Assembly (NCBI GenBank): GCA_964291265.2
Contig: OZ219747.1
Location: forward strand, 2,656,001-2,720,000
DNA from: Alphaproteobacteria bacterium
GTDB taxonomy: Bacteria > Pseudomonadota > Alphaproteobacteria > SP197
Reading direction: 5' to 3'
DNA: 64,000 bases
The first letter of the stretch is position 1. Each line of letters begins with the position of its first letter. Made by a program: the position numbers and the translations under genes. Below the pieces are notes generated by a model. That model searched no databases, was not told the origin of the DNA, and worked only from the letters and a program-made list of their open reading frames with translations. Positions 12,639-15,600 of the stretch are shown here, in pieces.

Positions 12639-15600
12639 ATGGTCGAGGCCATGAAGACTTTTGCCGAGACGCGCGGAGCGACACAGCAGCTGACGGGAGG
12701 TGGTGACGGCCTATGTCGGGCGTCAGCGGCCTTGTCATGCGAGGCGCCTGACTGGCAGGCGCTCTACGAGGCGGAGCGGGTTCGTGCGGATGCGGCGGAA
12801 GCGCGTATGCGGTGTGCCAGCATCCATGTTTCCCGGCAAGGTTTTTTGCGGGTGTCCGTGGTGATGTTTTCTGTGGTTGTCCACAGCGGTCTGGGGTTCC
12901 GCCTTGTCGATGTTCTTGTCCTGCGAGCGAGGCGACATGCAGCTTGTGGTCCCGGCGGCATGGGCGGGTTGTTGTCCATTGATCATGGTAACGTTACCGG
13001 CGAGTGCGGTCGCTTTGCCGCCGGCGTTCCCGGACATGGTAACGTTACCGTGTTTGATGAAGTTCCAGGTGTCATGCGTCCCGGCGGCATGAGCGAGTTG
13101 CCGTCCATTGATCACGGTAACGTTACCGATGAGCGCGGCCACCTTGCCGCCCAGCGTCCCCGGGCATGGTAACGTTACCGTGATCAAGGGGGTTCCAGGT
13201 GTCATGTGTCCCGTCCGTAGCCGCGCGGCGGTTCGATCTCCTCGAGAGCCTCGATGTCGGCCTCGACGATGATCTGCAGACGTTCTCCGTAAGCCGTGTC
13301 GCGCAGGGAGTCGGGAAGACTGTCGAGACAGTCTCGATAATGCTCCTGCAATGCACCGAGCTCGGCCACCGCATCGCGCCAGCGTTGCGCACGGGAACGA
13401 CGGTCGCAGGGCTTTCGGTGGTGGACGGCAGGGATGCCGGCCTTGCGGCGTTCCCGATAACGGCGCTGCTTCTCGGCAGGGGTGAGGGCCATGAGGGTGT
13501 CTCCTTCGCTCACTCGCAAGGTCACGCCGGCGACCGTGCCGGTGCTTCGGGCGACCAGCAGCGCTGCTGTCGCAGCAAGGTGTTCGCCAGCACGATGAGC
13601 TTGCGCATCACGGCGACTATCGCGACCTTGTGGGCCTTGCCGGCGGTCTTGAGGCGCTCGAACACTCTTGCCAGGTCCGCGTTGAAGCGTGTCGCCGCGG
13701 TTGCGGCCATGAACAGGAGATCGCGTGGCCTTCTTCGCCCGCCTCGGATGTGCCGAGCACCGTGGTGCTGGCCGCTGTCGTTGGCCATCGGCGCCACCCC
13801 GATCAAGGCTGCCGCCTGACGGCGGTCGAGACTGCCGAGTTCGGGCATCCAGCAAAGAAGGGCCGCGGCGGTCACCGGACCGATACCGGGGATCGAGATC
13901 AGGATGCCGTACTTCTCGGCCTGCTCGGGATCACGGGCGATCACCGCTTTGATCTCCGCATTCAGCCCCTCAATCCGATCATCGAGATCGTCTGCCGAGG
14001 CCCTTGTGACGTTCTCGCCTTCGCCATCCACCTCATCTGCCACCTGCCTCAGCATGGTCCGCACGTCGACAAGCGCGGTACGCGCCACCAGGAGATCCTC
14101 CAGGTTGTTGAGGAAGGCATCCTGAGGAGCTACAGGCTCAAGATCGCCGAGCATCGTGCCGATCTTGGCCAGCATCAACGCGTCGACGCGGTCGGTCTTG
14201 GCCAGATGGCCCAACGCCTCGGCGAAGCGCCGGGCCCGCAACGGGTTGACCAGGACAACCTCGAAGCCCCGGTCATGAAGACACTGGTGAACCTTGCGGT
14301 GATAGCGACCTGTCGCCTCCATCACCACACGGGTCACCTTGAGGCTGCGAAGCCATGTGTTCAGCGCCCGCCAGCTCGTGGCGTCGTTCGCAAGACAATG
14401 CGTCTGGCCCTCCGCACAGATGTCCAGACTGGCCTTGCTGACATCAATCCCTGCTACTACCTTGCCCATCGTCCCTTGCTCCTCGCCTTATGATGATTCG
14501 GTTCAAACCCAGGCATCCATTCAGGACGCAAGGGACGCCAAGGGAGGTTGGCCGACCAAGCTGGCACACGGCTCCGTAAGGCCAAGGCGAAAACGGTCCG
14601 ACCAACCTCCGCGGAGATCGTTTGATCCCCGCACCCCGCTCCCCTGTGCTTGATCGCGCAGGGGAGCGGAATCTCTCTGCAACCATAGACCGGGCCCTCT
14701 CCCACAGTCGGGGTTGTCCACATTTTCCCGCCGCCAACCGCTGTGGATGATTGCATCATCACGGGGACAAAACCTGGTCATATAAGGCGAACTGGCGGAA
14801 GGTAGGGGGTGAAAGTCCCCTGGAACGAAGGAGTAACCAAACCACGTTTCTCCGCGAGCCGTGCGTCGGTTCCCGCGAGGGGGCAGGCGAAGCGTCGGTA
14901 GCGGTACGGATGGGCAGGGCTAATGAGCACCGAAAAAGCTATCATCCGGGGTGCCGAGGCTTTCGCATTGGTCGAAGGCAACATCGCAGGCATCGATTTG
15001 GTGAGATGTCGGCGAGCCCCGCGGTGTCAGAGAACCCATGCACGTCCGCACGCCTTCTGTTGGGACCCTGGGAGATCTTCAAACCGTCCCGCCGGTTGTG
15101 GCGGGACCGCATGGGGAAGGAGAAAACCGAAGCCTATGATGTACGGTTTGAAGAAGTCGGATGAGGCCGTAGTACCTGTGAAGGCGGCGAACAAGGAAGC
15201 GTTAGCTTCTGCGGAGTCGCTGGAGGAAAGGGCCTCAACCAAGGGGAATCCGGGACGCTAAAGCACGCACCGAACGCAGTGTCGGGCAAGCGTGCCACAG
15301 GCGGCGGATCGGATACGGGAAGCCGCAGGCTAGTCCAGTGGTTTGCCGTCCAGTACCCGAGGTAGGAGCCGGATGGATTAACGTCCACGTCCGGATCTGC
15401 GCGGGGGGTGCGCAGCAATGCGCATCCCTACCGCGTCTGACCTGCGCTGTGCGGAGATTGCTGCCCGTGCCCGTGCGGGCACATTCAAGTTTCATCTCGA
15501 CCGCACTCGTGATCAGCTCAAGGAGGCTCGCGCGGAGGTGCGGGCGGCTCGCCGGGAGGTGAAGCGGGTACAGGCCCTGGCGGAGGCGCTGGAGCGGGAA

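Follow-up and report, generated by a model that had tools for sequence, protein, structure and literature searches.

An IS110 element whose predicted bridge RNA matches the 5' end of a group II intron, and related elements with guides for other mobile DNA

What directs an insertion sequence (IS) of the IS110 group into the first nucleotides (nt) of a group II intron, and has the element become specialised on that intron? This question is raised by a 64,000-nt stretch of an alphaproteobacterial genome (contig OZ219747.1, positions 2,656,001 to 2,720,000; hereafter the window), in which an IS110 element interrupts such an intron. An earlier sequence-only reading of the window had proposed that the element carries a bridge RNA programmed against the first 14 nt of the intron, and had called it a hyperparasite. 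Based on the present data, TTCGC-CT-GGCAC, the sequence encoded by the predicted bridge RNA, is the reverse complement of intron nt 3-14, and we consider it likely that the element inserts there by the mechanism described for IS621. To answer the question we made use of the anatomy of the element, the identity of its guides, their covariation with targets and the sites that are used, all of which were observed directly. The features concerned are the following (ORF, open reading frame; aa, amino acids).

12812..12820, plus strand: group II intron nt 1-9 (GTGTGCC plus the AG core), the right half of the target
12819..14786, minus strand: IS110 element, 1968 bp with both CT cores, present in four identical copies in the genome
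12834..12839, minus strand: predicted -35 (TTGCCG) of a circle-junction promoter, in the right end; TTGC/TTGA is kept in the 12 elements listed
13522..14469, minus strand: IS110 recombinase, 315 aa; D9, E51, D93, D96 and S232 align with the catalytic residues of IS621
14470..14537, minus strand: donor loop, holding ATGGATGC and ATAAG
14487..14494, minus strand: right donor guide AU(C)AUAAG, which would pair with the core and TATAT; its U/C covaries with donor A/G
14512..14520, minus strand: left donor guide AUGGAUGC(C), matching the right-end terminus ATGGATG and the first core base
14543..14610, minus strand: predicted target-binding loop
14561..14569, minus strand: right target guide GUGUGCCAG, working part GUGCCAG
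14585..14593, minus strand: left target guide UUUUCGCCU, working part UUCGCCU
14611..14632, minus strand: 5' stem-loop of the predicted bridge RNA
14777..14782, minus strand: predicted -10 (TATGAC), 17 nt from the -35 after the ends join
14787..15437, plus strand: rest of the ORF-less group II intron (nt 10-660), with an RF02005 match at 14812-15036

The element is an intact IS621-type member of the IS110 group. Its recombinase contains PF01548 and PF02371, scores above the cut-off of NF033542 and aligns with that of IS621 at E = 2e-28. Both junction sequences (GTGTGCC-AG at 12812-12820 and AG-GCGAA at 14785-14791) bear out the claim that the element sits at intron nt 8-9 and duplicates only AG: this dinucleotide (CT on the element strand) is all that the two ends have in common, no further duplication accompanies the insertion, and excision in silico regenerates GTGTGCCAGGCGAA. 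The CT core was present at all four copies and in all 21 close relatives for which both ends were found, which makes this a 2-nt core insertion. No inverted repeat of at least 14 nt of the kind found sub-terminally in IS1111-type elements joins the element ends (repeats of 11-13 nt lie below that limit), and the guides are located upstream of the recombinase gene, unlike the downstream RNA of the IS1111 group. The likeness to IS621 (Durrant 2024, PMC11208160; Hiraizumi 2024, PMC11208158) extends to the DEDD RuvC and Tnp serine residues, the CT core, a left-end RNA with a target loop and a donor loop, guides matching opposite strands, a discontinuous right donor guide and a predicted junction promoter. 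Of the 12 elements listed, 11 would bring together a TTGC-type hexamer, a 17-nt spacer and TATGAC across the joined ends, and the remaining one has TTGACC and TATGAG instead; no promoter of this junction type was predicted in the integrated form. The circle junction itself was not found among the assembled contigs of four public runs, although contigs cannot exclude a circle. One contig, of run X3, contains a short-deleted join that resembles the lesions of decayed introns described below.

The predicted fold of the element's left end (14465-14700, minus strand) comprises a 5' hairpin and two internal loops; its z is -5.05, and none of 200 shuffled sequences was as stable. No Rfam family reached threshold over this bridge-RNA region. 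The two stem-closed loops and the guide sequences within them were located where the sequence-only reading had put them, with TTCGCCT at 14585-14591 and GTGTGCCAG at 14561-14569 in the target loop. Its proposal that the other loop matches the predicted circle junction is likewise borne out, both by the donor-guide match and by covariation, since a guide U stands opposite donor A here and a C opposite G in most relatives. The match of the target guides to the intron is in a 5+2+7 register and does cover intron nt 1-14, as had been claimed, but the working target is shorter. Among 17 distinct sites, matches per guide position numbered 4, 5, 7, 12, 13, 12 and 16 on the left and 17, 16, 14, 13, 17, 6 and 5 on the right; this count leaves out guides that could not be parsed (L026 and most derivatives in genome G061), an element with a loop deletion (L006) and repeated identical sites. 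The outer two positions of the right guide thus agree with the sites of the relatives in a minority of cases (6 and 5 of 17), and the outermost of them is a G of the scaffold that does not vary. Therefore the working target consists of 12 nt, TTCGC-CT-GGCAC at intron nt 3-14, rather than 14, in keeping with a clade pattern of 4-5 nt, CT and 5 nt, and the outer two guide bases belong to the scaffold. The working guide of about 5+2+5 differs from that of IS621, which is 7+2+2, extendable to 7+2+5. The GCGA that follows the donor guide has a 4-nt fit to the intron and was considered as additional target coding; it was rejected because it is scaffold common to differently targeted relatives. The handshake bases after the core fit in this element and in G004-A, though not in G010b or L101.

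If the two target guides are real, they should vary between elements together with the insertion sites. Relatives were found in 7 of the 22 genomes of the genus (best copies with 77-83% protein identity), two metagenome contigs added more, and the family set comprised 33 genomes including the present one (G000); 10 loci that duplicated earlier ones were dropped before counting. The RNA scaffold turned out to be nearly invariant across relatives, with 97.7% of the cells in its helices paired and 12 cells changed on both sides, and only the two target guides vary. Cognate pairs of guide and site (n = 19) had on average 8.2 of 10 matches, as compared with 3.5 +/- 1.3 and a maximum of 6 for non-cognate pairs (n = 298). 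Since the guides shift with each element's own sites on a fixed scaffold, we conclude that they are real, which supports the bridge-RNA interpretation. Insertion in the relatives takes place despite 2-4 mismatches in 10. Elements of about 90% DNA identity have guides that are entirely different in both halves, while the left guide of the present element is a single base apart from that of G004-B. Five loci of G009 (L008, L017, L030, L034 and L036) share a run of C in the left guide that is seemingly read in two registers at different sites.

The sites present in the genome point in the same direction. Of the four identical copies, three lie at intron nt 8/9, one in an ORF-less intron and two in introns encoding a reverse transcriptase (RT). 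With the four copies removed in silico, the working 12-mer has 31 exact sites, 30 of which are intron 5' ends, even though introns make up 0.95% of the genome; 50 further sites have one mismatch and 607 have two. The aim at introns that had been read from the window is thus supported genome-wide. Only 605 of the 4^10 possible guides (5.8e-4) have at least 31 sites in this genome, a fraction that rises to 4.9% when guides are weighted by occurrence, and 11 guides of relatives tried on this genome had 0 or 1 exact site each. A weight model built from the relatives places 67% of the insertion propensity on intron sites, so that three of four copies in introns is what the guide predicts. The two RT-encoding host introns that are filled have identical bodies and differ at 9/160 and 38/900 flanking bases. 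The filled introns occupy two exon sites, and together with the differing flanks this indicates that the three filled introns do not stem from one IS66 duplication. Empty exact 14-mers number 27, every one at the 5' end of an intron; one IS66 site accounts for 14 of them, a second for 11, and 2 lie elsewhere. Three are located in the window, exactly as had been reported:

7383..7396, plus strand: empty target in an ORF-less intron copy
10727..10740, minus strand: empty target in an RT-encoding intron copy
28898..28911, plus strand: empty target in an ORF-less intron copy

The landing pads, which the earlier reading ascribed to spread of the intron, are spread by the intron itself and also by IS66 elements that carry it. 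A possible older insertion at intron nt 8/9 (C2 3954246), with 14 bases resembling the left end, was not counted, as 7 of these bases also occur in an RT C-terminus and 2 in the intron. Six decayed introns of this genome have small deletions at or beside the target (C2:2242645, 1456225, 1430312 and 1455007; C1:226546 and 28494). These could be recombinase scars or escape mutations; a scar origin could not be demonstrated.

By analogy with IS621, the element would excise as a circle whose joined ends would form a promoter, and the bridge RNA would bind the recombinase, its donor loop pairing with ATGGATG-CT-TATAT and its target loop with intron DNA. Recombination at CT would then place the element antisense between intron nt 8 and 9. 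In an alignment the split falls within the conserved first 20 nt of domain 1 (D1), and for this reason a filled intron probably cannot splice; to judge from its position, the element would probably block splicing for as long as it is present. Loss of intron function, the sense in which the word hyperparasite applies, is what we infer from this.

How general is targeting of this kind among the relatives? Of the 21 insertions with both ends found, 5 lie in group II introns (4 distinct sites), none of them at the position of the 5' end. The clearest case is an element of G010 at the base of intron domain 5 (D5), whose 13-nt target has one filled site and seven empty exact sites, all seven at D5 bases. 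G004-A lies in a motif at the 3' side of intron D1 in two of three copies, which have common flanks and may represent one event; its exact target occurs once in the 33 genomes, in that D1 motif of an intron. A guide from contig LXNI01025674.1, used in its second register, matches the ends of intron domain 6 (D6): it has 12 matches in the 33 genomes, and 8 of 10 inspected are intron ends. The D1 and D6 matches are weaker than the D5 case. Outside introns, the guide of G015 has five exact sites in its own genome, all at TnpB ADLNA codons, and one further such site is filled by the element. G010, G015 and G004-A are taken as independent lineages. Exact matches to a 21-kb library of intron RNA were obtained for 4 of 12 guides (shuffled mean 0.035, maximum 2 in 2000). 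This test was post hoc, since a decayed G000 intron in the library had been recognised earlier as a match for G004-A, and six guides, including that of L101, were allowed two registers. A conservative test with a library devoid of G000 sequence, one register only and all 17 guides gave 2 exact matches against 0.036 expected (P = 0.0004).

In a tree of 16 elements, most of which was without resolution, the intron-matching elements did not group; their four guides need four changes, of which the supported branches force only two. It is likely that these elements enter other mobile DNA by adjusting their guides to it. We go further with little more than even confidence, namely that the clade is a serial parasite of mobile elements which rewrites both target guides on a fixed scaffold to conserved motifs of a host's multi-copy element. 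Introns would then have been hit four separate times (5' end, D1 3' motif, D5 base and D6 end) and TnpB catalytic codons once. Apart from this further claim, the guides of the clade probably change rapidly while the scaffold stays the same, and a lineage would persist and spread when its guide suits a conserved motif in some dispensable mobile element of high copy number. Intron homing together with IS66 transposition would keep supplying sites.

Other observations on these relatives are listed here in their own right. One intron (G004:C1:1143266-1149379) contains two different IS110 relatives (L002 and L025), near nt 50 and in the D1 3' motif. At L016 (G015), the C-terminus of an intron RT is fused in frame, via microhomology, to a truncated IS110 recombinase in a 765-aa open frame. 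G061 contains about 50 internally deleted IS110 derivatives with intact ends and several guides (L049 and L051-L100), at a few repeated non-intron sites without a Pfam match; relatives of G061 and plasmids yielded no further close element with a usable guide. The guide of G009 was considered as IS5-specific, which was rejected because the 10 empty sites inspected out of 20 comprised five in one other multi-copy ORF and five that were unrelated. Junction-pattern matches in nine other genomes of the 33 scanned were also rejected, as the seven loci inspected had no similarity to IS110 or introns and were all in one common coding sequence.

Several findings weigh against specialisation on introns or against the IS621-like mechanism. 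The sequence-only reading had proposed to test in related genomes whether insertions all lie at intron nt 8-9 and whether guides covary with intron 5' ends; the guides do covary with their own sites, and the insertions are not all at intron nt 8-9. A 5'-end guide was found in none of the 32 other family genomes, and none of the relatives' intron matches inspected had an IS110 end at nt 8/9. Introns of G005, G010 and G012 likewise retain an intact 14-mer. Since this genome is alone among 33 in having such a guide, we regard it as one lineage's state in a clade that changes targets often. As many as 16 of the 21 relatives' insertions are outside introns, some in host-type genes; the targets include IS5, integrase, SRAP and oxidoreductase genes and intergenic DNA. 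Without the guide of the present genome, the conservative test is reduced to 1 of 16 (P = 0.03). No exact site was found for G004-B or for G009 in register 1 in their own genomes, nor for G010b in the 33 genomes, and the intron library contains nothing closer than two mismatches to the five G061 guides. Within the present genome only 3 of 30 intron sites are filled. Copies at unrelated sites had been named beforehand as evidence that would refute the targeting claim. This applies in part: one of the four copies lies in a DNA adenine methylase gene instead of an intron, its site ATCGC-CT-GGCTC agreeing with the guide at 8 of 10 positions, and a left-end remnant adjoins ATCGC outside any intron, both with mismatch of the extent usual for the family. 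Lastly, the predicted -10 departs from the sigma-70 consensus in that its final T is missing.

It could be argued that there is no specialisation at all, that random drift of the guide happened to match the intron and was noticed for that reason, and that nesting in introns reflects survival in dispensable DNA. The finding was indeed selected for its match, the genome is so rich in repeats that 12-mers with at least 31 copies account for 4.9% of CT sites weighted by occurrence, and a family that tolerates mismatches and inserts widely has a 5'-end guide in one genome only. Survival bias may explain the positions of copies but not the exact identity of the guide, for which the uniform chance is 5.8e-4, and two guides outside this selection, those of G010 for D5 (7/7) and G015 for TnpB (5/5), are also exact for multi-copy mobile motifs in their own genomes; we therefore consider drift improbable. 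A different origin of the match would be that guides are copied from an occupied site, by recombination or RT template switching, rather than tuned, so that intron matches merely record where an ancestor landed. The wholesale differences of both guide halves on an unchanged scaffold in elements about 90% identical in DNA would fit such capture, and introns would supply an RT on site. Most relatives, however, match their present sites imperfectly (7-12 of 14), the one-base difference from the left guide of G004-B fits stepwise change, and TnpB and IS targets are without an RT, which leaves guide capture with a low probability.

The element might also be a passenger rather than a parasite, if the intron still splices with a 2-kb insert and carries the IS110 along by retrohoming. 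Intron nt 1-9 are intact, and the two RT introns that hold the element at the same position have identical bodies in different IS66 hosts. Set against this are the split in the conserved start of D1, the independent mobility of the element, which is also found in an ORF-less intron and in the methylase gene, and its absence from 27 of 30 intron 5' ends, and we judge carriage by a splicing intron to be doubtful. Structured DNA could draw elements to introns besides any tuning of guides, with target hairpins aiding recognition. The target 12-mer region folds as DNA into a 5-bp hairpin with TTCGC in the loop (-4.7 kcal/mol), the targets of relatives in D5 and D6 form part of stems, and ISPpu10 needs a stem-loop in its target (10.64898/2026.03.19.712850). 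Nevertheless, the geometry differs in that the upstream arm here pairs with the core and right target rather than the left target, and coding targets in TnpB and IS genes are used as well. Attraction by structure cannot yield exact guide identity and would at most add to guide-directed insertion; as an explanation we consider it unlikely. Guide-directed insertion at intron nt 3-14 is the interpretation that we retain.

The IS110-group element ISPpu9 reportedly inserts in host repetitive extragenic palindromic (REP) repeats. A second element of this group, ISPpu10, likewise inserts in many identical copies of one repeat, and its target can form a hairpin; its targets are host REP repeats, whereas the repeat used here is itself mobile, and the hairpin geometry differs (10.64898/2026.03.19.712850). 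IS621 also targets REP, as opposed to the group II intron here (PMC11208160, PMC11208158). IS4321/IS5075 at the terminal repeats of Tn21, the IS1111-attC group, ISKpn4, ISPst6 and ISPa11 resemble the present element as RNA-guided IS on a conserved, repeated site of another mobile system, and differ in having sub-terminal repeats, a downstream RNA and DNA recombination sites as targets (PMC11187229, PMC11208160). In the present case the target is instead a motif of a ribozyme, and the targets of near relatives have changed between intron domains, TnpB and IS genes. That members of the IS110 family can be aimed at REP, attC and Tn21 ends is already known (PMC11187229, PMC11208160). RmInt1 in ISRm2011-2 (PMC4496777) is a further case of one mobile element specialised on another, and the introns studied here too sit in an IS (IS66); in that system the intron targets the IS, while here the IS targets the intron. 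In the full-text literature searched, we found no group II intron described as the target of a bridge or seek RNA; ISfinder, bioRxiv supplements and most subscription papers lay outside this scope, and an unnoticed record may exist. One paper that mentions IS110, bridge RNA and group II introns together treats them, in its available portion, as separate families (10.64898/2026.10.21.760802). The word intron does not occur in the main texts of PMC11208160, PMC11187229, 10.64898/2026.08.14.744561 and 10.64898/2026.03.19.712850; in the readable portions of the PMC11208160 supplements it occurs in the code archive only, and the 12-mer was not found there.

The host intron spans 12812-15437 and measures 660 nt without the insert, its ends having been set by comparison with an empty IS66 site. 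RF02005 scores 170 bits, the 5' GUGYG and D1 homology are present, and hairpins resembling D5 and D6 were seen in the sequence and fold, with RF00029 below threshold. The context given in the sequence-only reading can be refined in that this copy has no RT/maturase ORF, which is found in a sister intron of the window that is 94% identical over 551 nt. Of the two marks of class E/F group II introns, RT phylogeny and a 5-nt D5 loop (PMC3753933), the loop was seen in related introns. The remaining features of the locus are as follows.

8894..10480, minus strand: group II intron reverse transcriptase/maturase of the sister intron, TIGR04416 above cut-off
12987..13179, no strand assigned: four right-end GGTAACGTTACC palindromes, their number doubled through duplication of 129 nt
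13202..13492, minus strand: conserved 96-aa passenger ORF without a Pfam or Atlas match
15418..17070, plus strand: IS66 transposase frame with the intron inserted

The 96-aa ORF and the palindromes in the right end set the element apart from IS621. The ORF is intact in 11 of the 12 elements listed and is followed by GGTAACGTTACC palindromes, four here and one or two in most relatives; ORF and palindromes are possibly a small DNA-binding regulator with its operators. The ORF-less intron, with 15 near-identical copies at one IS66 site, ends in GTC rather than AY (15418-15437; 29538-29557), and an ATG within its D6 is in phase with the IS66 transposase that follows, which leaves the transposase frame open even without splicing. 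The stack of IS66, intron and IS110 interrupts a hydantoinase B gene (11650-20168), and an ISKra4-like transposase gene lies at 17661-19049. Elsewhere in the genome, an element composed of the methylase gene and an IS66-like transposase carries a 57-nt IS110 left-end remnant upstream and is present in 13 copies (e.g. G000:C2:765780-765836). The off-target IS110 copy lies inside one such methylase gene, 1.2 kb from another, inverted IS110 copy.

With a guide for the start of a group II intron, the natural targets of bridge RNAs come to include a retroelement ribozyme, and an IS that targets an intron reverses the familiar relation in which the intron targets the IS. Nearly identical recombinases and scaffolds with entirely different guides, several of them exact for intron or TnpB motifs, amount to natural retargeting on a short timescale by a mechanism that can be tested, and they provide a natural panel of guide/target pairs with a right guide longer than that of IS621. 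If the clade is indeed a serial parasite, it would offer a natural series that traces how guides are reprogrammed, which is an open question for bridge RNAs, as well as a mechanism that switches off self-splicing retroelements. The finding suggests a route by which intron families may become inactivated in element-rich genomes.

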